Below are positions 8,648 through 41,517 of a stretch of 64,000 bases of DNA, in pieces. The notes below the pieces were generated by a model, which worked only from the letters and a program-made list of their open reading frames with translations, was not told the origin of the DNA and did not search any database. The stretch is from Patescibacteria group bacterium (GTDB lineage Bacteria; Patescibacteriota; Microgenomatia; UBA10105; UBA927): the NCBI GenBank assembly GCA_049322955.1, contig JBMOPU010000033.1, positions 128,784-192,783 on the forward strand. The letters are read 5' to 3'. The translations under genes were made by a program, and so were the position numbers. Position 1 is the first letter of the stretch, and the number at the start of each line of letters is the position of its first letter.

Positions 8648-10750
8648 ATGGCAAATCCACAAACAACCGTAACAGAAAATCGCGACGTTCCTCTTGATAA
8701 GGTAAGAAACATCGGTATCATCGCGCACATTGACGCAGGAAAAACCACCACTACCGAGCGCATCCTTTTTTACACCGGACGAAGTTATAAGTTGGGCGAC
8801 ATTGACGAAGGCAACACTCAAATGGACTGGATGGAACAGGAACGGGAACGCGGCATTACCATCGTGTCCGCGGCGACCACCACCTTCTGGAAAGGCTTTC
8901 GTTTCAACATCATTGATACTCCCGGACACGTTGACTTTACCGCGGAAGTCGAGCGATCGCTTCGCGTGCTTGACGGCGGCATTACCGTCCTTGATGCGGA
9001 AGAAGGCGTACAATCACAGTCTGAAACCGTATGGCATCAGGCGGACAAATACAAGGTACCTCGTATCTGTTTTGTCAACAAAATGGATAAAATCGGAGCC
9101 GATTTCCGAAACACCATAAAACAGGTCGAAGAACGACTGGGTGCGCGTACCGCCGTTATGGTCGTTCCCATCGGACGCGAAAACACTTTCCGGGGAGCCG
9201 TTGATTTGTTGACCCGCGAAGCGCATGTGTGGAATACCGATGATTTGGGAGCAAACCCCGAGACAATCGAAATTCCCGAAGAGCTGAAAGCGGAAGTGGA
9301 AGAATCACGACATGCACTCATTGAACGCGTTGCGGAAACGGATGACGCATTGCTTGAGAAATATCTCGGCGGCGAAGACATCAGCGTCGAAGAGCTCAAG
9401 GCGGCGCTTCGTCGCGCCGTCATCGCCTACAAGCTTGTTCCGGTCTATTGCGGCACGAGTTTGAGAAACAAAGGGGTGCAACCGCTTCTTGATGCCGTCG
9501 TCGATTATCTTCCTTCGCCGCTTGATCTTCCCGAAGTGGAAGGAACCAACCCCAAGACGAACGAAAAGACGACAAGAAAACGCGTGAACGAAGAAAAGTT
9601 TGCCGGTTTGGCGTTTAAAATCCAGATTGATCCGCACGTCGGAAAACTTACCTACGTCCGTATTTATTCCGGAAAACTCGAATCGGGATCCTATGTCTAT
9701 AACTCCACCAAAGGAGCAAAGGAACGCGTCGGCCGGTTACTTCTCATGCATGCAAACCAACGGGAAGAAATCCGGGAAGCATATGCGGGAGAAATTGTCG
9801 GTGTCGTCGGCTTTAAAGATACGATTACCGGAGATACCATCTGTGATGATGCCAACCAGATCGTGTTAGAGCAGATTACCTTTCCGGAACCGGTTATTTC
9901 GTTGGCTATCGAGCCCAAGACCAAAAACGATCAGGAAAAGATGGGCTATGCCTTACAACGGTTAAGCGAAGAAGACCCGACATTTAAGATCAAATCCAAT
10001 CAGGAAACGAATCAGACCATTATCTGGGGTATGGGTGAGCTTCATCTCGAAATTCTCGTTGATCGCATGAAGCGGGAGTTTAAAGTCGAGGCAAATGTGG
10101 GCGCTCCTCAGGTTGCCTACAAGGAAACCATCAAGAAAATGGCTGAAGGAGAAGGAAAGTATATCCGACAAACCGGAGGTCGCGGTCAATACGGTCATGC
10201 AATGATCCGCATTGAGCCGAAAGCACGCGGCGAAGGATTTGAATTTATCGATGCTATCAAGGGAGGCGCGGTTCCCAACGAATTTATTCCTCCGATTGAA
10301 AAGGGTATTGTGGAAGCGATGGAAAACGGCGTGTTGGCGGGATATCCGCTGGTTGATATGTCCGCAACGCTGTATGACGGAAGTTATCATGATGTCGACT
10401 CTTCGGAAATGGCCTTTAAGATCGCGGGTTCCATGGCACTGCAGGATGCGGTAAAGCACGCGGATGCGACGATTCTCGAACCGATCATGAAGGTCGAGGT
10501 GACAACCCCCGACGAATACATGGGAGATTGTATCGGTGACCTTTCCGCGCGTCGTGCGCAGATCATGGGATCCGAACAGCGGGGAACCGTGACGGTGATT
10601 CTAGCCATGGTACCGCTTGCGGAATTGTCCGGATATGCCACGGTACTTCGTTCATTATCGAAAGGAAGAGCAACCTATTATATGGAGCCTTCCCACTATG
10701 AAGAGGTTCCGAAGAATATCCAGGAAAAGATTATTGCGAAGAACGTCTAA
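8648..10750 (+). CDS. fusA: elongation factor G
   Basis: GTP-binding motifs ([14 protein letters not shown]) and full-length EF-G similarity. Confidence 0.97.
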
Positions 10751-10839
10751 GATGTGTTAAAATGTCGCAAGCGACTTAATTTTTTACGGTCGAGTATTTA
10801 TTTTTTATAAACATTATTGAGATCTTTTAAGGAGGGAAT

Positions 10840-12027
10840 ATGGCAGATGCAGCCAAATTTGTTCGAAATAAGCCACATTTGAATATCGGAACCATCGGTC
10901 ACGTTGACCATGGAAAAACAACCCTTACCTCCGCAATCACGCACGTCCTTGCCAAAAAAGGCATGGCGAAAGCGATGAAATATGAGGAAATCGATAATGC
11001 ACCGGAAGAAAAGGCACGCGGAGTCACCATTAACATCCACCACTCCGAATACGAAACCGACAAACGGCACTATGCCCACATTGACGCCCCGGGACATGCT
11101 GATTATGTCAAGAACATGATCACCGGAGCCGCCCAAATGGACGGAGCCATCCTGGTGGTATCCGCTCCGGACGGTCCGATGCCGCAAACCCGCGAGCACA
11201 TTCTGCTTGCAAACCAAGTGAACGTTCCGGCCATCATCGTCTTCATGAACAAATGCGACATGGTGCAGGACAAAGAGCTTTTGGATCTTGTGGAGATGGA
11301 AGTCCGTGAACTTCTCACCAAATACAAGTATCCCGGAGACAAAATCCCGGTTATCCGCGGCTCAGCGCTCAAAGCATTGCAGGGCGATGCCGATGCGGAA
11401 AAAGCAATTGAAGAGCTCATGAAGACCGTCGATGAATACATCCCGGATCCCGTTCGTGAACTCGAAAAACCGTTCCTTATGCCGGTAGAGGACGTCTTCT
11501 CTATCAAAGGCCGAGGAACCGTCGTAACCGGAAGAGTTACCCGAGGAAAAGTGAAAGTCGGCGACACGATTGAAATCGTCGGTATCAAACCGTCACAGTC
11601 AACCGTGGTTACCGGAGTCGAAATGTTTAGGAAATCACTCGACGAAGGACTTGCCGGCGATAACATCGGCGTATTACTCCGCGGCGTTGAAAAAGAACAG
11701 GTAGAACGAGGCCAGGTGCTTTCAGCGGCCGGCTCCGTGAAACCGCACACCGAATTTGAAGCGGAAGTGTACGTGTTGACCAAAGAAGAAGGCGGACGAC
11801 ACACACCGTTCTTCACGGGATACCGACCGCAGTTCTATATCCAGACGACCGACGTAACCGGAGAAGTTGCCCTTCCCCAGGGAGTCGAAATGGTTATGCC
11901 TGGAGATAGTACCAAGATGAATGTCAAACTTATCGTACCCGTTGCCCTTGAAGAAGGACTTCGGTTCGCTATCCGCGAGGGTGGTCATACGGTAGGAGCG
12001 GGAGTTGTTACAAAGATTATCGCTTAA
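10840..12027 (+). CDS. tuf: elongation factor Tu
   Basis: [22 protein letters not shown]. An AAGGAGGG Shine-Dalgarno sequence lies upstream. Confidence 0.97.
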
Positions 12028-33608: not shown

Positions 33609-34067
33609 ATGGAAGAAGATACAAACCAAACAAAAACAACGTATTATGAAGCCGTAGGTCGCAGAAAGAATGCAACCGCACGGGTGAGACTGTATGTCGT
33701 CAAAGATGAGTCGGTGGTTATCAATGGGACGACGGTTGCCAAGGGCGACATGATTGTCAACGGCAGACCCGCCGAAGCGTATTTTCCCGGTGAAATCGAC
33801 AAGAAAGTATATCTTGAGCCGTTTAGAACCACCAACACGATCGGTAGATTTGCGGTGAGTGTCCATACGGTCGGTGGCGGGCTTGCGGGACAACTCGGTG
33901 CGACGTTACAGGGAATTTCCCGTGCACTTGAAAAGACGGATAAAGAGAAGTTCCGTCCGATCCTGAAGAAACGCGGCTTCATGACGCGTGATTCCAGAAA
34001 GAAACAACGCATCAAGGCAGGATTTGCTCACAAAGCGCGTGCTCGCAAGCAATCTCCGAAGCGATAA
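33609..34067 (+). CDS. rpsI: 30S ribosomal protein S9
   Basis: S9-family sequence ending in …KARARKQSPKR. Confidence 0.95.
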   Translation: MEEDTNQTKTTYYEAVGRRKNATARVRLYVVKDESVVINGTTVAKGDMIVNGRPAEAYFPGEIDKKVYLEPFRTTNTIGRFAVSVHTVGGGLAGQLGATLQGISRALEKTDKEKFRPILKKRGFMTRDSRKKQRIKAGFAHKARARKQSPKR

Positions 34068-34074
34068 GGTGGTC

Positions 34075-34154
34075 TCGGGACGGAAACGAGTTTCCTTCCC
34101 GATGTGGCGACAGGCAATGCCTGCGGAAAACCGCATCTGCTCTTCTTTCCTTTT
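34075..34154 (+). other. structured element copy A. It has a bulged hairpin with a C/U mismatch (34075-34102), a second hairpin (34111-34123) and a pyrimidine tract CTGCTCTTCTTTCC (34137-34154). It is a candidate terminator module or small RNA.
   Basis: Read directly: tcggga-c-ggaaa-cgag-tttcc-t-tcccga, then caggc-aat-gcctg, then ctgctcttctttcc. It is homologous to the copy at 40947-41025, with compensatory changes between copies. Confidence 0.45.
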
Positions 34155-34216
34155 ATAGCGCGGATATCCTATTGGTCGGGAAGTAGTACTGCTCTTTTTC
34201 CCTCAGCATGAACGTA

Positions 34217-34810
34217 CTATTTTTTGGCGCGTTCAAGGAAGTCGTTCAGAAGCGTTTGTTGTTCGTTGTCCGTAAGCGGAGTCGGAGTATTGTCATATAC
34301 CCGTTGTTTGGTGATTTCCCATAACAATATCGCCGTGGCGACCGATACATTGAGACTCTGCACAAATCCGCGCATAGGAATTTTGAGCACGGTATCGGCA
34401 CTCTTACGCATGACATCTGAGACCCCGGCATGTTCGTTGCCGACGATAACGGCAAGCGGTGTTTTGGGATCGTGATACCGTTCCAATGAAACGGCACCCT
34501 CGGTAAGTGCGGAAACAACGATACGATATTTTGCTTTTTTCAACGCTTCAATACATGCCTGTGCGGATGAAAACACCGTAAAATCCAACCATTTATTCGC
34601 GCTTGAACTCGTTGCCTTTCCGATGCGTTTGGGATTATACGGCGTCTCTTTTTCGAAAATAAACCACACCTGTTGGATACCCATTGCCTCGCATGTACGC
34701 AGTATCGCCGCCGCATTATGCGGATCATGAATATCTTCAAGTACCACGACCACCCCAGCCTGTCGGCTCCGTACCACGTCCGTAATCCTTTGTAATCGTC
34801 GTTGTTCCAT
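34217..34810 (-). CDS. SpoU/TrmH-family (SPOUT) RNA 2'-O-methyltransferase
   Basis: SPOUT motifs (…AVIVGNEHAGVS…, …QSLNVSVATAILLWE…). Start taken at MEQRRLQRI. The track start at 34849 is an alternative. Confidence 0.7.
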   Translation of the reverse strand: MEQRRLQRITDVVRSRQAGVVVVLEDIHDPHNAAAILRTCEAMGIQQVWFIFEKETPYNPKRIGKATSSSANKWLDFTVFSSAQACIEALKKAKYRIVVSALTEGAVSLERYHDPKTPLAVIVGNEHAGVSDVMRKSADTVLKIPMRGFVQSLNVSVATAILLWEITKQRVYDNTPTPLTDNEQQTLLNDFLERAKK

Positions 34811-34923
34811 AATGGGAATAAAAAGCTGAGGGCAATCCCACAACAACAATGAGGGTATAAGTGTTTGAATGCGAAGTCAAGCGAATGGCGTATCGTATGA
34901 AAGATGCCGTACTATAGAGGTAT

Positions 34924-36366
34924 ATGCGACAACGTACGAAAATCATAGCCGTCGCGTTAAGAATCGGCTTACTTTTTCTCAGCATCGCGGTAACGATAGT
35001 GGTGTGTGAATCCGTATTGCGAGGAGCTTCGGTCATTGCGGGTGCAAAGATTACATCGCGTATCCATACCGATACCGCCGACTTTGTTATCCTCACGCTG
35101 GGCGAGTCAACAACGCAGGATACCACCGGGCATACCTGGCCGCTCCTCCTCGAAAAACGACTTTCTCAGGCATATCCGAACCGTTCCATACGGGTTATCA
35201 ATAAAGCTATCCCCGGAACAAATACGAGTGTATTAGTGGGGAACCTTCCCGCACAGATTACCGAGTACCAGCCGGATGTGATTGTGAGCATGATGGGCAT
35301 AAACGATCAGTATGAGGCGACATTTCCGGCAAGTGTGTATATCCCCGATAAGGATACTACCCCGTGGCTGACCGTAAAGTTTTTTCGTATGACGGTACGA
35401 TATCTTTCCCTGCTGATTGCTGAAGCCCGTGACTTTTATCACTCACCCGATCCGTACGTGTTAAGTCAAAAAGCCGATATGTATCGGATAAACGGCGAGT
35501 ACGAACGTGCGGAACGGTATCTCCGACGATCGATTACTCTTGAGCCAGATAATCCCGAGCATTTGATGCTTTTGGCGATTCTCTATAGGGATATGTCCCG
35601 CAACCGTGAAGCCGAATATACGTTACTTACCGCAAAGCTAATCGCCCCGACTGCAGACGGCGTCTATGTCGAGCTTGGCAACTTCTATCGGGATAATGGA
35701 AACCATATGCTCGCTGAGGAGATGTACAAAACGGCATTGCTTCTTAATCCGCAAAACGGACTTGCCTATGATGCGTATGGGATGCTTGCTTCGTGGTATC
35801 AGGGGGATATGGCGAAAGCGAGGGAGTTATATGAGCAGGGAATCAGGTATTATCCGACCATGATTTCTCCGTATTTTGAACTGGCGGATATATATATTGC
35901 GGAGAATAATATCGGGAAAGCGAAGGCATTATACGAAAAAGTGCTTTCAGTTGAACCGAATAGCACACTGGCAAAACGCGGCCTTGCGAGGGTAGAAGGT
36001 GAGGTAATGGGCGACAGTAGCACAAACGAACAATCGCCCGGATCGCTGTTTTCCCCTATGACCGTCAAAAATTATGGAAAACTACTTGCGATCGCGAGTG
36101 CCCGACGCATTCCCGTAATTGCGGTACAGTATCCGTTACAATCGGCAGAAGAACTGCGGTCGGTGATTACGGGCTTAGCGGATTCTTTCAGTGAGGTGAC
36201 GGTAGTAGGAAATGAGGAAAACTTTCGGGATTTTTTGCAAAGGGGCTCGTATGATGATCTTTTTTCCGATCATTTCGGCGGCAATTTCGGTCACACGACC
36301 GAAAGAGGAAGCGAGCTTATCGCCGCCGGCGTTGCGCGTACGATAGAGACGATACTCAAGAGATAA
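34924..36366 (+). CDS. membrane-anchored SGNH/GDSL-family hydrolase with a TPR-repeat insertion of about 200 aa between catalytic blocks III and V
   Basis: Block I ILTLGESTT (Ser nucleophile). Block III MMGINDQ. Block V DHFGGNFGHTTERG (Asp/His). TPR repeats lie between them (…YRDNGNHMLAEEMYKTALLLNPQNGLAYDAYG…). Confidence 0.6.
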   Translation: MRQRTKIIAVALRIGLLFLSIAVTIVVCESVLRGASVIAGAKITSRIHTDTADFVILTLGESTTQDTTGHTWPLLLEKRLSQAYPNRSIRVINKAIPGTNTSVLVGNLPAQITEYQPDVIVSMMGINDQYEATFPASVYIPDKDTTPWLTVKFFRMTVRYLSLLIAEARDFYHSPDPYVLSQKADMYRINGEYERAERYLRRSITLEPDNPEHLMLLAILYRDMSRNREAEYTLLTAKLIAPTADGVYVELGNFYRDNGNHMLAEEMYKTALLLNPQNGLAYDAYGMLASWYQGDMAKARELYEQGIRYYPTMISPYFELADIYIAENNIGKAKALYEKVLSVEPNSTLAKRGLARVEGEVMGDSSTNEQSPGSLFSPMTVKNYGKLLAIASARRIPVIAVQYPLQSAEELRSVITGLADSFSEVTVVGNEENFRDFLQRGSYDDLFSDHFGGNFGHTTERGSELIAAGVARTIETILKR

Positions 36367-36425
36367 CAGCGCACGATCCCGCTAAGCGGGACGAACATTC
36401 GACTCCACCATGGACTTTATGCTTG

Positions 36426-36498
36426 TCGGGGCGACACGATTTGAACGTGCGACCACACGACCCCCAGCCGTGTGCTCTACCAACTGAGCTACGCCCCG
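36426..36498 (-). tRNA. tRNA-Pro (anticodon GGG)
   Basis: Hand-folded cloverleaf. Acceptor is C1-G72 with A73. D-arm is GCTC/GAGC. Anticodon stem is CACGG/TCGTG with loop CTGGGGG. T-arm is GCACG-TTCAAAT-CGTGT. The 3' CCA is not encoded. Confidence 0.85.
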
Positions 36499-36516
36499 TC
36501 TTCGTAATTCGGACCT

Positions 36517-36564
36517 CATTCACTTTGGGACGAAACCTACGGTTTCTTCCCAACGATCTTCCCT
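36517..36564. repeat. direct repeat copy 1 (48 nt) in the tRNA-Pro/recA divergent intergenic region. It contains the bulged hairpin 36525-36553.
   Basis: cattcactttgggacgaaacctacggtttcttcccaacgatcttccct. It is identical to copy 2. Confidence 0.85.
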
Positions 36565-36595
36565 TAATAGGAAAGATTATGGAAGAGATAACCTC

Positions 36596-36643
36596 CATTC
36601 ACTTTGGGACGAAACCTACGGTTTCTTCCCAACGATCTTCCCT
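36596..36643. repeat. direct repeat copy 2 (48 nt, period 79 nt). It contains the bulged hairpin 36604-36632.
   Basis: 48/48 identical to copy 1. The flanking (t)aatagga is also shared. Confidence 0.85.
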
Positions 36644-36832
36644 AATAGGAGTCGCGAACTATTCAGCTTCCTATCCCACGTTCGCGACAGATACATTATA
36701 ACCAGTCTTTATGTGGACTGTTCCAATATATCTTTATCGATCCTTGTATTCTATCATTTATTGTGTAAAAATGGGAAAGATCCTGCAAATACCGCAGGTC
36801 TGCCCCAATATTATTTCCCACAGGAGGTACGT

Positions 36833-37867
36833 ATGGCACAGGACCAAAAACTTCAGGCGATTCGTCTTGCGATGGAGACTATCGAAAAACAATACGGCAA
36901 AGGATCCATCATGAAGCTCGGCGACAAAAACAATGTCAAAGACGCCATTGATGTAGTTCCCACGGGAATCTTACCGCTTGATCTCGCCCTCGGAGTGGGC
37001 GGCGTGCCAAAGGGAAGAATCGTCGAAATTTACGGACCCGAAGCATCGGGCAAAACGACCGTATGTCTTTCCATCATTGCCGAAGCACAGAAGGCGGGGG
37101 GAGTGGCGGCGTTTATTGATGCCGAACATGCACTTGATCCCCAGTGGGCGGAAGTGTTGGGCGTGAAACTCGACAACCTGCTTATTTCTCAACCCGATAC
37201 CGGAGAACAGGCGCTTGAGATTGCCGAGACGCTTATCCGAAGCGGCGGTATTGACGTTATCGTCATTGACTCGGTGGCGGCGTTGGTGCCGCGTGCCGAA
37301 ATAGAAGGTGAAATGGGTGACAGTATGATGGGAGTGCATGCCCGCCTTATGTCACAAGCCTTACGAAAACTCACGGCAGTCATCGCAAAATCAAAGACGA
37401 TCGTTATATTTACCAATCAGCTCCGTCAGAAAATCGGTGTCATGTTCGGTAACCCCGAAACGACGACCGGAGGGATGGCGCTCAAGTTTTATGCCAGTAT
37501 CCGCATGGACAGCAGAAAGATCGAAACGATCAAAGACGGCGATAAAGTCATCGGAAGCAGGCATCGGGTACGGATTGTCAAAAATAAGGTTTCTCCGCCG
37601 TTTAGACTTGCCGAGTATGACGTCATGCATGACGGAATCTCCCGTGAAGGAGCAATCCTTGATGTCGGCGTAGAGCAGGGGGTTATCAGCAAATCGGGCG
37701 CGTTTCTCAAGTACGGCACCCAAATGCTCGGTCAGGGAAAGGAAGCGGCAAAACTATTCCTCAAGGAAAATCCCAAAGTATTTAAAGAGATTTCCGAAGC
37801 GATCTGGAAAGCGGTGAAGTCCGGCCACGCACAAGCCAAGGTTGCCGTCACCGAAGACGAAGAATAA
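36833..37867 (+). CDS. recA: recombinase RecA
   Basis: Walker [10 protein letters not shown] and L1/L2 loops. AGGAGG Shine-Dalgarno sequence at 36823-28. The track ORF start at 36713 was rejected. Confidence 0.95.
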
Positions 37868-37904
37868 CACGCCATCTGTCGATAGCGTACATTCCGCACA
37901 CGCC

Positions 37905-38663
37905 TTATTTTTTCTTAAATCCTTCGAGTGCATGAAGGATTTCAAGAGGAACCGTAAAGACCACCGTGTTCGATTGGTCGGACGAGATATCATTGATCGA
38001 ATTTAACGTCCGCAGATGCAGTGCTCCCGGTGTTTCTCCCATGGTTTTGGCGGCAATGGCGAGATTCTTTGATGCAATGACTTCTCCTTCAGAGTTGATG
38101 ATGGTGGCACGTTTTTCCCGTTCCGCTTCCGCTTGCTTGGCCATGGTACGTACCATGGATTCGGGAAGCTTGATATCTTTTAGTTCCACGCTTGAAACAT
38201 CCAGTCCCCAAAGTCCCGCGGATTTTTCGACGATATCGCGGATTTTGACCGCGAGATCATGACGCTGGGTGAGCAACTGGTCGAGTGTCACCTCTCCTAT
38301 GACGTTTCGCATGGTCGTTTGCGCAAGTTGGGAAACCGCCCAATAAAAATTCTCGACTTCGAGGATGGCTTTTTTTGCATCCACGATTTTGTAGTAAATA
38401 ACCGCGGTAATTTTAGTGCTGACGTTATCCTTGGTGATCACTTCCTGATCCGGTTCTTCGACCACTTTGGTACGGACGTCAACTTTTTGCCAGGTCTGAA
38501 AAATCGGAAGTACGATCCGCCAACCCGGCTCAAGGACTCCGGAAAACCGCCCGATGGTAAATTGGATACCCCGTTCGTACTCGTTAATTTGCTTGAGGGA
38601 AGAAAGAATCAGTACCGCTATGGCGATAAACACCGGGGTTAACCCCGCAAAAAGTAATTCCAT
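37905..38663 (-). CDS. SPFH/band-7 (stomatin/prohibitin-like) membrane protein
   Basis: N-terminal TM plus SPFH domain (…ITKDNVSTKITAVIYYKIVDAKKAILEVEN…). Start at 38663, which has a GGAGG Shine-Dalgarno sequence. Confidence 0.8.
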   Translation of the reverse strand: MELLFAGLTPVFIAIAVLILSSLKQINEYERGIQFTIGRFSGVLEPGWRIVLPIFQTWQKVDVRTKVVEEPDQEVITKDNVSTKITAVIYYKIVDAKKAILEVENFYWAVSQLAQTTMRNVIGEVTLDQLLTQRHDLAVKIRDIVEKSAGLWGLDVSSVELKDIKLPESMVRTMAKQAEAEREKRATIINSEGEVIASKNLAIAAKTMGETPGALHLRTLNSINDISSDQSNTVVFTVPLEILHALEGFKKK

Positions 38664-38719
38664 AAATACCTCCGTTAGGTGTAGTATATACGCGAGCTCT
38701 CCTGCGGGCAAGCATACCT

Positions 38720-39211
38720 ATGGACCTGTCAGAAAGTACCGTTTATGAACGACTGATGAACGCCGCTATCCGGTACATATCGTTTCGTCTGCGCAGTGAA
38801 AAAGAAATACGGGATTTTATCCGGCAAAAACTCATCAAAAGCCACACGACCGCGCCCGAGGTGGAAGCTCGGGTACTGCATCGACTCGGTGAACTGGACT
38901 ATGTGAACGATGAGAAATTCTGTGAGTGGTGGCTGAGCCAGCGGCAAGGCAGTAAGCCCAAGGGTATCCGGTTGATTCGTGCCGAGTTGGCACAGAAGGG
39001 GATCGCACGTGCGCTTATCGATAAAGCGGTGAGTCAGTCGGCATCCGATGAACGTACGCTCGCATACCGAGCCATAAATAAGAAACGCGAAATTTGGCGT
39101 CAATTGCCTCTCCTTGCCCGAAAAAAGAAGCTGGGAGACTATCTGTTACGCCGCGGTTTTTCCTCGGATGTCGTCCGGGGTGTCGTTGACGATGTAGTGG
39201 AAAACGTGTAA
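38720..39211 (+). CDS. recX: RecA regulator RecX
   Basis: RecX three-repeat helical protein (…YVNDEKFCEWWLSQR…). It is separated from recA by the antisense SPFH gene. Confidence 0.8.
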   Translation: MDLSESTVYERLMNAAIRYISFRLRSEKEIRDFIRQKLIKSHTTAPEVEARVLHRLGELDYVNDEKFCEWWLSQRQGSKPKGIRLIRAELAQKGIARALIDKAVSQSASDERTLAYRAINKKREIWRQLPLLARKKKLGDYLLRRGFSSDVVRGVVDDVVENV

Positions 39212-39386
39212 AATACATGACAGTAGGCCAGCAAATTGTTCTGGCATAGGTAAAGATATAAAAAACAACAGATTGACTTGTAGGATTATGAGATTGCATC
39301 ACACCACGTGTTCTCCTACATACCGCACTTCTTAAGCCGCGGATTTTTTTGTTGCTTTTTTGTCTTCACCTTGAGAAAGGATTCTT

Positions 39387-40940
39387 ATGTTTGACGTACT
39401 TAAAACGTTATCCGGGTTAGTAAAACCCAAAAGTAGTACGAGTGGTTCCATGAAAGCGCCCGTCATTGTCCCCGTGACACAGACTCCGCCCGAACCGGTA
39501 CTCTCCGCCAAAAAAAGCAAGAAAGGCGCACAGCCGCAAGTGCCCGCGGTGGATATTGAAGCCATCAAAAAGATGGCGGAAGCACAAGCCCGGGAAATTA
39601 TCCTTGAAGCGAAAGATGAATCGCTCCGGATTCGCCGTGAAGCGGAATCCGAGATCAGACGACTTGAAGGGAGCGTCCGTGACCGGGAAATTGCCGCCGA
39701 TCGTAAGGATGCAAGTCTCATTGATCGTGAGAAACGTATTCTCGAGGCGGAAGCATCCATGCTAAAGATAAAAGCGGATATTGAAAAGACCCGCCAGGAA
39801 ACGATCACAAAACTTGAAAAAACAGCACACCTCACCCGTGATGAAGCAAAGGAACTTATCCTGAGCGAACTTCGCGGAGAGCTTGATCAGGATATCGCCA
39901 GAGAGATCAAAGAAGCGGAGGCAAAAGCAAAAGAAGAAGCGGAGGTCAAAGCCCGCGAAATATTGGTTGACGCCATGAAACACGGAGCAACCGATTATGT
40001 TCCCGAATATACGGTATCAGTTATTAAAGTAGCCGATGAGGAAGTAAAAGGAAGAATTATCGGCAAAGAGGGACGAAATATCCGTGCGTTTGAAACCGCA
40101 ACGGGGGTTGATGTGGACCTTGATGAAGAAGGAGTGATACGACTTTCGAGTTTTGATCCCGTGCGTAGGGAAATCGCCCGAGTTACTCTTGAGCGTCTGC
40201 TTCGTGACGGAAGGGTACAGCCAGGCCGTATCGAGGAGCTCATCGAACAGGTAAAGAAAGAAACAGAACGGATTATGTTCGAGGAAGGACAGAAGCTTTG
40301 TCATTCAGTGGGTGTCTATAACCTTCCGCCGCCACTTATTGCCATGCTCGGTCGGTTCAAGTACCGCTATTCCTTCGGGCAAAATATGATTGCCCATACC
40401 ATGGAAGAAACCAAAATCGGTATAGCGATTGCCCAGGAAATCGGCGCCGATGTCAATGTGGTTCGTCTCGGTTGTCTCTTGCACGACATAGGCAAGATTG
40501 TTGCCGATAAAGAGGGAAACCATATCGAGTTGGGTGTCGAACTGTGTAAAAAATACGGATTACCGCAGAAAGTGATAGATTGTGTGGCGCAACATCACGA
40601 GGATACGCCATTTACCAGCGTTGAATCCATGCTTGTCTACATTGCCGATGCGATTTCAGGAAGCAGACCGGGCGCACGGTACGAAAATTATGACGAGTAT
40701 GTCAAACGCCTGAAGGATCTTGAGGAAATTGCCAAATCCCATAAAGGGGTAACCGCAAGCTTTGCATTCCAGGCAGGTCGCGAAATACGGGTCATTGTCG
40801 ATCCCGGAACGGTCAGTGATGCCACCACCGTGGTTATGGCAAAAGAGATCCGTGACGAGATAGCGAAAAAAGTTATCGTACCCGGAAGCGTGAAGGTTAC
40901 GGTAATCCGTGAGCTTCGTGCGGTGGAAACGGTGAAATAA
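39387..40940 (+). CDS. rny: ribonuclease Y (N-terminal TM/coiled-coil, KH and HD domains)
   Basis: KH (…IGKEGRNIRAFE…) and HD (…LLHDIGK…) domains with a long coiled-coil N-terminus. Confidence 0.9.
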   Translation: MFDVLKTLSGLVKPKSSTSGSMKAPVIVPVTQTPPEPVLSAKKSKKGAQPQVPAVDIEAIKKMAEAQAREIILEAKDESLRIRREAESEIRRLEGSVRDREIAADRKDASLIDREKRILEAEASMLKIKADIEKTRQETITKLEKTAHLTRDEAKELILSELRGELDQDIAREIKEAEAKAKEEAEVKAREILVDAMKHGATDYVPEYTVSVIKVADEEVKGRIIGKEGRNIRAFETATGVDVDLDEEGVIRLSSFDPVRREIARVTLERLLRDGRVQPGRIEELIEQVKKETERIMFEEGQKLCHSVGVYNLPPPLIAMLGRFKYRYSFGQNMIAHTMEETKIGIAIAQEIGADVNVVRLGCLLHDIGKIVADKEGNHIELGVELCKKYGLPQKVIDCVAQHHEDTPFTSVESMLVYIADAISGSRPGARYENYDEYVKRLKDLEEIAKSHKGVTASFAFQAGREIRVIVDPGTVSDATTVVMAKEIRDEIAKKVIVPGSVKVTVIRELRAVETVK

Positions 40941-40946
40941 ACATAT

Positions 40947-41025
40947 TCGAGACAAAACCTACGGTTTTTTCTCGACGCGGAGCGGGCATAGCCCGCGTAA
41001 CGCTGCCGCTGCTCTTTTTCCCTCA
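40947..41025 (+). other. structured element copy B. It has a bulged hairpin with a C/U mismatch (40947-40975), a second hairpin (40982-40996) and a pyrimidine tract CTGCTCTTTTTCCCTCA (41009-41025).
   Basis: tcgaga-c-aaaacc-tac-ggtttt-t-tctcga, then gcgggc-ata-gcccgc. Compensatory substitutions relative to copy A preserve both helices. Confidence 0.45.
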
Positions 41026-41232
41026 ATACGCAAGCAAGAAAAATATTTATTTTCTTTATTGGATTGTCGGGACAATCCAAAATGTTTATGTGTTGCGATT
41101 TAGATTGTTATACTGCGATGTACTAAATGATAGGTTGACAGGACGCGCTGTATCTTTTACATTGCCTCGTAGAGATTGTTGCAACAATCCCTTAATAAAA
41201 ATTTCTTGTCCTAACCCTCTGCCCAAAAGGAG

Positions 41233-41517
41233 GTGAATTTCTCCATGACCAAAGCAGATCTCGTTGATGTCGTTGCAAAAAAAGCAAATCTGACCGCAAA
41301 AGCCGCACGCGAAGCAGTCGGCGCCGTATTCGGAGCCGTTACTGATGCATTGAAAAAAGGCGACAAGGTTGTCGTCACCGGTTTCGGTACCTTTATGGTA
41401 CGATCCCGCAAAGCACGCACTGGCCGCAACCCGCAGACCGGGGTGGCGATCAATATTGCCGCACGAAAAACTCCTGGTTTCACCGCCGGGAAGGCACTCA
41501 AAAAAGTCGTTCGTTAA
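41233..41517 (+). CDS. hup: DNA-binding protein HU
   Basis: MTKADLVDVVAKKANLTAKAAREAV… is typical of HU/IHF. AAGGAGG Shine-Dalgarno sequence. Confidence 0.9.
   Translation: MNFSMTKADLVDVVAKKANLTAKAAREAVGAVFGAVTDALKKGDKVVVTGFGTFMVRSRKARTGRNPQTGVAINIAARKTPGFTAGKALKKVVR

Follow-up and report, generated by a model that had tools for sequence, protein, structure and literature searches.

A family of hairpin elements in Patescibacteria whose pyrimidine tract may form a triple helix with its own stem

Four hairpins in the window and their relatives elsewhere

The window analysed here, a stretch of 64,000 nt from contig JBMOPU010000033.1 of a Patescibacteria group bacterium (GenBank assembly GCA_049322955.1), holds four copies of a 29-nt hairpin, which we call hp1, beside rpsI, a tRNA-Pro gene and rny. 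Element A starts 7 nt past the stop codon of rpsI and faces the 3' end of a SpoU methylase gene, the opposite-strand tRNA-Pro(GGG) gene has its 5' end 26 nt from element B1 and 105 nt from B2, and element C starts 6 nt past the stop codon of rny, upstream of hup, whose promoter-like site (41135-41163) lies downstream of the element. The coordinates and sequences given for these hairpins in a preliminary description of the window, all on the plus strand, proved exact (Table 1). Both strands were scanned blindly for the structure alone (stems of 6 and 5-6 bp on either side of any 1x1 position, a loop of 3-5 nt, Watson-Crick pairs only), and these four sites were the only ones returned; 0.01-0.03 chance matches to a degenerate sequence pattern are expected per window. 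That description had counted four copies and placed copies directly after operon ends (rpsI, rny). The four are not independent, since B1 and B2 form a perfect 48-nt direct repeat with a spacing of 79 nt, a local duplication that leaves three independent loci (a direct-repeat tool reports it and Tandem Repeats Finder does not). Only A and C follow gene ends; the B copies have the tRNA-Pro promoter on one side and the tRNA on the other.

When 185,579 genomes, one per species, were scanned for the exact pattern, 55 matches turned up at 49 loci, whereas chance would give about 4. Six of the matches look like chance (Desulfopila, Flavobacterium and others); the remainder come from Gottesmanbacteria, Levybacteria, Roizmanbacteria, Microgenomates, Saccharibacteria and genomes named "Patescibacteria group", and the hairpin sequence is conserved from Saccharibacteria to Microgenomates. 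A metagenome scan in which the mismatch positions of hp1 (7 and 23) were left free gave a further 35 loci, about 28 of them true members. The preliminary description had made its case depend on the existence of further copies, and these are now at hand, nearly all of them in the candidate phyla radiation (CPR). The element has no match in Rfam 15, where tRNA-Pro alone scores in the window and a search of 33950-41300 at E<=10 gives only noise; a scan of viral contigs gave 0 matches; we found no description of it in the full-text literature, literal sequences included, and a study of rRNA insertions in CPR does not mention it. Its tandem arrays comprise only 2-3 units with identical sequence between the repeats and are not CRISPR arrays. 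The hairpins apparently represent an undescribed family of structured intergenic elements of about 45-110 nt that resemble repetitive extragenic palindromic (REP) sequences and are specific to Patescibacteria/CPR.

Several metagenome-assembled genomes (MAGs) with copies are titled "uncultured Gammaproteobacteria bacterium" and have CPR gene order (L010, L040 and L049 from CAYUZE01; L018, L025, L028, L044 and L047 from CAZHOQ01; L009, L022, L029, L030 and L045). The ribosomal protein S9 of CAYUZE01 is 98% identical to that of the window, which is itself 100% identical to a protein named Patescibacteria group bacterium. Given the synteny and the 98% identical S9 we treat these MAGs as CPR, and their record titles appear to be wrong.

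Pairing of the hairpin and parallel reading of the tract

The 5' arm of hp1 is almost all purine and its 3' arm pyrimidine, with purines at positions 3-6 and 8-11 of the 5' arm in all 31 distinct hairpins. Across these 31 sequences the 12 pairs are 99.2% paired, and six of the 12 show changes on both sides (45 cells), a value not matched in any of 500 shuffles; the test is fair because the genome-scan pattern left both sides of five stem pairs free to mismatch. The compensatory changes first noticed between the window copies thus hold across the family when set against a null, and the preservation of pairing in further copies is the pattern of a selected structure and not of chance palindromes. 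The mismatch has fared differently. A C opposite U, said to be kept in every copy, is present in the four window copies, and its apparent invariance in our first genome scan was built into a pattern that itself fixed C7 and T23. Once both positions were freed, C·U was seen in 22 elements and a G-C pair in 6, among the latter the orthologue of copy C in the closest relative (L040:7486), and a covariance-model search recovered secondary copies with, among others, a bulged U or C·C at this site. We have therefore withdrawn the claim that the mismatch is invariant.

Two types of element are built on hp1. In type I (A and C in the window) it is followed by a single C, a helix that closes the insertion (P2), a hairpin within it (P3), a bulge rich in A (GAAAAC), the dinucleotide UG and the tract CUCUUYUUCC. 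In type II (the B copies) it is followed by CGA, the tract UYUUCC and a second hairpin (hp2) whose loop is TATTCAC; the unit then closes with an AT-rich stretch that gives TATAAT when read on the opposite strand, and boxes resembling TATAAT recur there, at the distal end. The types are linked by L017:5723, in which an insertion separates hp1 from a type II tract. The second hairpin and the pyrimidine tract that the preliminary description assigned to A and C are both confirmed. Over 31 type I elements, hp1, P2 and P3 together are 96% paired, and 15 of the 23 pairs carry double changes (108 cells, up to four pair types, 0/500 shuffles); RNAalifold independently gives the same fold and leaves the tract unpaired. 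Element A carries a 1-nt deletion, as judged from its orthologue L040:1887, which has the 29-nt form, and its P2 is weaker than that in L040 (GTGGCGG/CCGCCAC). Hairpins homologous to hp2, with the TATTCAC loop, occur in Roizmanbacteria, Levybacteria and Gottesmanbacteria; across type II units, for example in L015, L016, L026, L033 and L041, the loop starts with TATTCAC (GTGAATA on the tRNA strand) whatever the stem.

Read parallel to the purine arm of hp1, the tract has C for G and U for A. In this register, the best of 32, the 24 distinct arm/tract combinations agree at 156 positions and disagree at 17 (90%); the other parallel shifts reach 72% at most and the antiparallel registers 68% at most. 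When tracts were permuted among 18 distinct combinations, 97.8 +/- 3.7 matches were obtained against 117/144 observed, and 0/20,000 shuffles reached the observed value; these statistics are without phylogenetic correction, and the covariation amounts to about 6-8 subfamily-level events. Thus arm GAGAC-A stands with tract CUCUU-U, GAGAC-G with CUCUU-C, GAGAG with CUCUC, GGGAC-G with CCCUU-C, GAGGGA with CUCCCU, GAGAGGG with CUCUCCC and, in the type II element L032:2208, GGGAAA with CCCUUU. In the variable cells of 31 aligned type I elements a tract C lies opposite G 19 times and opposite A once. Conventional antiparallel pairing of the tract with the 5' arm was rejected: at best it reaches 68% compared with 90% in the parallel register, it fits the single R8/Y position, and it is contradicted by the G-C variants and by the combinations GGGA/CCCU, GAGGG/CUCCC and GAGAGGG/CUCUCCC. 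The tract lacks the usual antiparallel complement nearby.

The tract is thus a mirror repeat of the 3' arm of hp1. A mirror repeat is the sequence hallmark that defines a pyrimidine-motif (Y·R-Y) triple helix, and no copying mechanism that we know of yields one. In type I, P2 closes the variable insertion and the tract then starts at the foot of hp1, and the 2-nt UG linker spans the two basal pairs that have their purines on the other strand; together with the purine arm these features make an architecture that fits a triplex fold. At the level of sequence, the parallel third strand with C over G and U over A is that of a pyrimidine-motif triple helix, and the single strand would then be a hairpin whose major groove is filled by its own tract.

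An alternative is that the element is a double-stranded DNA signal, either three GGGAARA-like boxes, inverted and repeated, that are bound by a regulator or nucleoid protein, or supercoil-dependent H-DNA or a cruciform at the borders of highly transcribed units. A homopyrimidine tract in mirror repeat is the classical H-DNA signature, the mirror identity with the 3' arm holds at position 23 too (U/U, C/C), and copies stand in both orientations next to highly expressed genes (tRNAs, rpsI, rpsA). A duplex would not, however, need the conserved C/T asymmetry, without which the palindrome would be perfect, or the compensatory changes in hp1, P2 and P3; a variable insertion of 30-60 nt closed by a covarying P2 makes sense only for a folded single strand, and one pair of copies lies within an rRNA gene. 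We regard a duplex signal as improbable.

Table 1. Features of the window at the three loci, with positions counted from its first nucleotide
Feature	Position	Strand	Details
Element A, hp1	34075..34102	+	TCGGGA-C-GGAAA-cgag-TTTCC-T-TCCCGA; type I; 37.5 bits
Element A, P2 and P3	34103..34136	+	P2 closing helix; P3 inner hairpin CAGGC-aat-GCCTG; GGAAAAC bulge
Element A, pyrimidine tract	34137..34150	+	CTGCTCTTCTTTCC; parallel register to hp1 purine arm GGGAC-GGAAA
Degenerate second unit	34178..34205	+	purine arm GGGAAG paired with second tract copy CTGCTCTTTTTCCC (34189-34202)
tRNA-Pro(GGG)	36425..36498	-	leader carries B1 and B2 antisense
Element B1	36517..36564	+	type II; hp1 36525-36553 and tail CGATCTTCCCT; 51.6 bits; minus strand is part of tRNA-Pro leader
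Element B2	36596..36643	+	type II; perfect 48-nt duplicate of B1, 79 nt downstream; hp1 36604-36632
Type II second hairpin, hp2	36651..36688	+	GTCGCGAAC, loop starting TATTCAG (36660-36666), GTTCGCGAC
TATAAT at distal end of type II unit	36695..36700	-	possible inner promoter of leader
Ancestral tRNA-Pro promoter, -10	36748..36753	-	TGaTAGAAT; promoter-like site 36777-36748, with TG
Element C, hp1	40947..40975	+	TCGAGA-C-AAAACC-tac-GGTTTT-T-TCTCGA; type I; 50.3 bits
Element C, P2 and P3	40976..41008	+	P2 CGG/CCG; P3 GCGGGC-ata-GCCCGC
Element C, pyrimidine tract	41009..41022	+	CTGCTCTTTTTCCC; CUCUUUUU parallel to GAGACAAA of hp1

Gene context and turnover of the copies

Among the non-redundant copies, 35 follow the stop codon of a same-strand coding sequence at a distance of 2-8 nt, or of 17-28 nt where Gottesmanbacteria copies are extended by 22 nt at the 5' side, and two follow a tRNA 3' end at 5 nt. 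Type I copies stand 5 nt behind tRNA-Thr at the MAG loci L007 and L014. A further 26 face the 5' end of an opposite-strand tRNA at 3-11 nt (26-27 nt for tRNA-Pro in Gottesmanbacteria), seven possibly face the start of a coding sequence, and 17 are unplaced, being tandem copies or lying at contig ends or in rRNA. The gene-proximal end is hp1 in all copies, with type I found mainly after coding sequences and type II mainly before tRNAs. Upstream of the sense copies lie rpsI, rny, rpsA (three times), era (three times), a penicillin-binding protein gene and others. Sense copies would mark the end of a transcription unit, because the promoter of the next gene follows with no other terminator or hairpin between. 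This placement, in sense orientation downstream of a gene and before a promoter, describes 37 copies including A and C, and not 26-33 others including B1 and B2; the earlier suggestion of a terminator module accordingly suits the former pair, between stop codon and next promoter, and not the latter.

Two explanations of the antisense copies were rejected. As terminators of a hidden plus-strand gene beyond the tRNA they would be misplaced, since the genes there run with the tRNA in 8/15 cases, and a promoter inside the reverse-complemented hairpin would need a -10-like sequence suitably spaced from the tRNA 5' ends, where none is present. A free-standing small-RNA gene, another of the early suggestions, is unlikely, since a hairpin only 2-8 nt after stops or 3-11 nt from tRNA ends leaves no room for a promoter of its own. 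The third suggestion, a motif recognised by a protein or for its structure, is possible.

The copies are extragenic imperfect palindromes, single or clustered and in both orientations, as REP sequences are, and they also form inverted pairs. Where such a pair lies between co-directional genes, the first gene is followed by a sense element, a promoter and an antisense element, and then by the next gene or a tRNA (L025, L032, L084, L086). In L029 (972-1147) and L068 (1823-2007) the 16S rRNA gene has 173 nt inserted into its helix-10/V2 loop, and this insertion consists of an inverted type I pair. In the window, the unit at 34178-34205 adjoins the stop codon of the convergent SpoU gene and is also present in L040; it is either a unit that has degenerated or what is left of a partner that stood inverted to element A.

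The position of the sense copies between a stop codon and the next promoter could also be that of ordinary Rho-independent terminators, alike through common descent or local duplication, in which the tract is no more than the U-rich tail; the type II hairpin followed by CGAUUUUCC and the type I P2 stem followed by UGCUCUUUUU have this appearance. Other gene ends in the window, however, carry unrelated ordinary terminator hairpins, and common descent would have to account for an hp1 sequence conserved across class-level lineages. Nor would terminators be expected in reverse in front of tRNAs, as 26 copies are; a U-tail has no need of the parallel covariation between tract and arm, and hp1 is not called by a consensus scan. 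This explanation has a low probability in our judgement. Compared with intrinsic terminators in general, the element shares a stem-loop with a U- or pyrimidine-rich stretch directly after genes and before the next promoter; it differs in its conserved sequence, its central mismatch, a U run set 4-6 nt from the stem, a tract that covaries with the stem and the reversed copies upstream of tRNAs.

The association with tRNA and rRNA genes brings to mind a boxB-boxA-like (nut-like) signal, with the hairpin and a (C)UGCUCUUU tract recruiting NusB/NusE for antitermination or processing. The boxA of Escherichia coli rrn operons is UGCUCUUUAACAA, and the main tract CUGCUCUUUUUCC shares GCUCUUU both with it and with the boxA-like CGCTCTTTTAGAG in the rRNA leader of L029. 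Against this, the tract varies with its own hairpin (CCCUUCUUUCC, CUCUCCCUCC, CUCCCUUUCC, CGAUCCUUUCU) and is not an invariant boxA core GCUCUUUA(A) in the leader of a regulated transcript; sense copies follow genes and do not stand in leaders, and in tRNA leaders the transcribed strand carries the purine complement, which is not boxA. Such a role is very improbable. The L029 sequence itself (745-760), downstream of a TTGACA-17-TATAAT promoter, can serve as the genuine boxA of this lineage when the tract is compared with one.

Comparison of relatives showed a rapid turnover like that of REP elements, in which copies appear and disappear, replace one another and multiply in tandem within short spans of evolution. 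Four syntenic relatives whose S9 is 74-80% identical have no element at sites A and C: in three of the four the gap between rpsI and spoU is 0-6 nt, with no room for element A, and all lack hp1 after rny, with one hp1 in 82 kb. In the genome with the 98% identical S9, a member of the G-C subfamily replaces copy C between nearly identical flanks, and a type II unit in the tRNA-Thr leader of L032 is absent from the orthologous L034. Copy numbers, which are strict pattern matches or refer to partial sequence rather than whole-genome totals, are 4 in the 64-kb window, 1-5 in several genomes of about 1 Mb and at least 15 in the Ga0172374 bin.

At the tRNA-Pro locus a promoter TGgTAGAAT-acaaggat stands at the distal edge of the upstream region in 5/6 genomes compared. 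About 12 nt and no element separate promoter and tRNA-Pro in L091 and L092; one type II unit lies between them in L090, two in the window and at least three in L040. Because relatives differ in the number of units at this point, B1 and B2 are best described as an insertion into the tRNA-Pro leader, and by their position between promoter and tRNA they would be transcribed as the reverse complement, with an A·G mismatch. We rejected a location in the 5' untranslated region of recA, as the recA promoter-like TGGGAAAGAT and the ancestral tRNA-Pro promoter both lie beyond the insertion. In L041, tRNA-His and tRNA-Lys have the same leader design with type II units about 90% identical, and tRNA-Gly and tRNA-Arg have plain TATAAT-N9 promoters.

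Such turnover is what a selfish mobile element would show, and this is the main rival to a role in the host. On this account the element is similar to REP sequences or miniature inverted-repeat transposable elements (MITEs) and has no host function; its hairpin-triplex would be the single-stranded DNA substrate of an HUH/Y1 transposase, like those of IS200/IS605 or the REP-associated tyrosine transposases (RAYTs), or of another recombinase, and copies would persist only where they are harmless, that is, after stop codons, in tRNA leaders removed by RNase P and in variable loops of rRNA. The account is favoured by presence/absence, swapping and tandem amplification at orthologous sites, the insertion in the 16S rRNA gene, the use of both orientations, the strong differences in copy number between genomes (15 or more in one bin, a single one in 82 kb of four relatives) and a G·U count that does not exceed that of A·C. 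Known substrates of transposases include DNA pyrimidine-motif triplexes as well as imperfect hairpins that contain a key mismatch (IS608, REP/RAYT). As in IS200/IS605 subterminal hairpins, we find a strand-specific imperfect hairpin with a mismatch, which is functionally important in those elements; these are active as single-stranded DNA and make non-Watson-Crick contacts between flank and hairpin, whereas the CPR element has neither a transposase gene nor a conserved cleavage tetranucleotide.

Other observations tell against selfishness. No transposase was seen next to any copy, and the open reading frame (ORF) between the oppositely oriented L084 copies, considered as a candidate, is recA; the filled and empty sites at tRNA-Thr and tRNA-Pro and the 16S insertion carry no target-site duplication of the kind that a MITE would leave. 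Many genomes keep an intact structure at very low copy number, the hairpin sequence is conserved from Saccharibacteria to Microgenomates, type is tied to context (I after coding sequences, II before tRNAs) with the hairpin gene-proximal throughout, and the same site is re-occupied by different subfamilies. We consider a purely selfish origin rather unlikely, though clearly more probable than the alternatives discussed above.

Some further features of these loci are recorded here. A hairpin CCTGCAAATACCGCAGG at 36782-36798 directly follows the recA promoter-like TGGGAAAGAT; L091 has cctgcgacgaagtgtcgcagg there, which means that the stem is conserved and the loop free, and it could be an SOS-type operator or a 5' untranslated region hairpin. 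L093 has a second copy of the tRNA-Pro promoter together with the initial 12 nt of the tRNA (CGGGGTGTGGCG), about 310 nt upstream of tRNA-Pro (11227) and beyond an unrelated insertion of about 300 nt that holds a 61-aa ORF and occupies the same tRNA 5' site. In L084 a 490-aa ORF (9401-10873, minus strand) with a serine-recombinase-like N-terminus runs into the tRNA-Pro gene and probably belongs to an element integrated at this tRNA. A perfect palindrome TTGGATTGTCGGGACAATCCAA at 41059-41080, situated between element C and the promoter-like site of hup, is a candidate for an operator or a structure in the hup leader; L040 has it unchanged, L085 has a nearly identical form, and it can still be recognised in L023 and L054.

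Possible roles and known counterparts

Our preferred reading, to which we assign a little less than even probability, is that the element is a CPR-specific, REP-like hairpin with a triplex-coded tract that is co-transcribed with the neighbouring gene and forms a module of transcript ends. P2 would bring the tract to the foot of the hairpin, where it would fill the major groove of hp1 as a Y·R-Y triple helix. A sense copy behind a stop codon or a tRNA 3' end would then be the end mark of a transcription unit and could act as a terminator, as a barrier to 3' exonucleases, or as both, its pyrimidine tail tucked into the hairpin. An antisense copy in the leader of a tRNA or of some protein genes would be at least tolerated, and perhaps exapted, and would be removed by RNase P. 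In a wider formulation, which we offer as plausible rather than probable, it is a mobile-like element of CPR whose hairpin is capped by its own tract as a major-groove triplex and serves either as a self-sealing transcript end or as a structure for transposition of single-stranded DNA.

Several observations weigh against a transcript-end triplex. In 17 cells the tract has U where the arm has G, and window copy A is one such imperfect match, with U opposite G4 and G9; L027 has C opposite A; and the covariation reduces to the few subfamily-level events given above. In the type I helices G·U (8 cells) does not exceed A·C (11 cells), so that a fold of single-stranded DNA fits equally well; a strand signal of this kind is suggestive in hp1 and hp2, where it comes from a handful of copies. 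A consensus terminator scan called 22 sites in 33900-41400 and none of them is hp1, because the U run starts 4-6 nt past the stem (after CGA in type II and after UGC in type I), whereas in an intrinsic terminator it follows a G+C-rich stem-loop at 0-2 nt; the 3' ends, termination and stability are all deduced from sequence. Antisense copies could not use the same RNA chemistry, as their third strand would be purine and we know of no stable RNA triplexes of that kind, yet they keep the relation between hairpin and tract. Finally, the elements are dispensable at every locus examined.

In behaviour the element is closest to REP sequences and in position to terminators, and the triplex signature is found in neither. 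REP sequences and the bacterial interspersed mosaic elements built from them, in enterobacteria and pseudomonads, are likewise short imperfect palindromes with a conserved mismatch; they are extragenic, often about 15 nt or less from a stop codon, and co-transcribed with their neighbours, they occur in both orientations, in inverted pairs and in clusters, and their copies show compensatory changes and are gained and lost between relatives. The CPR element differs from them in what seems to be a much lower copy number (REP sequences number tens to hundreds per genome, and here there are 4 copies within 64 kb and 1 in the 82 kb of relatives) and in a hairpin conserved over class- or phylum-level lineages rather than within one genus. 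It has no GTAG-type tetranucleotide 5' of hp1, where flanks often end in TC, and no RAYT gene was seen near it, although no search aimed at RAYT was made; and it has a purine/pyrimidine-asymmetric stem, the parallel-coded tract, P2 and P3, and frequent sites in tRNA leaders.

For the proposed triplex the nearest counterparts are the triple helices of the expression and nuclear retention element (ENE) of PAN RNA and of the MALAT1 and MEN-beta 3' ends, in which a transcript-end segment occupies a nearby major groove (U·A-U, C+·G-C), as is proposed here. The triplex would in both cases block 3' exonucleases, and the C·U interruption in mid-helix resembles the helical "reset" of those structures. 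There, however, an A-rich tail is clamped by two U-rich strands, whereas in the CPR element the Hoogsteen strand would be a pyrimidine tail that lies along a purine·pyrimidine hairpin; those cases are eukaryotic or viral, and the triplex predicted here is bacterial.

CPR/Patescibacteria make up a large share of bacterial diversity, and the ending, processing and stabilisation of transcripts are almost unstudied in them; the element stands at the borders of core genes (rpsI, rpsA, era, rny and many tRNAs) and inside 16S rRNA. If it truly folds as a triplex, it would be the first bacterial repeat family built on a hairpin-triplex, a natural set of compensatory variants for the study of RNA and DNA triplexes, and a bacterial counterpart of the ENE and MALAT1 3'-end triple helices that terminates or stabilises mRNAs and tRNA precursors; if the fold is one of single-stranded DNA, it would be the recognition structure of a new kind of transposition system. 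The element is small and easy to synthesise, and the Saccharibacteria, a phylum that carries it, have cultivated and genetically tractable members (PMC10187176). For annotation it offers a practical marker of transcription-unit borders, and it repeatedly breaks contigs when CPR genomes are assembled: L001 (Logan contig SRR26868047_7323), which belongs to the same organism and was assembled independently, ends at window position 36614, exactly within the B2 repeat.

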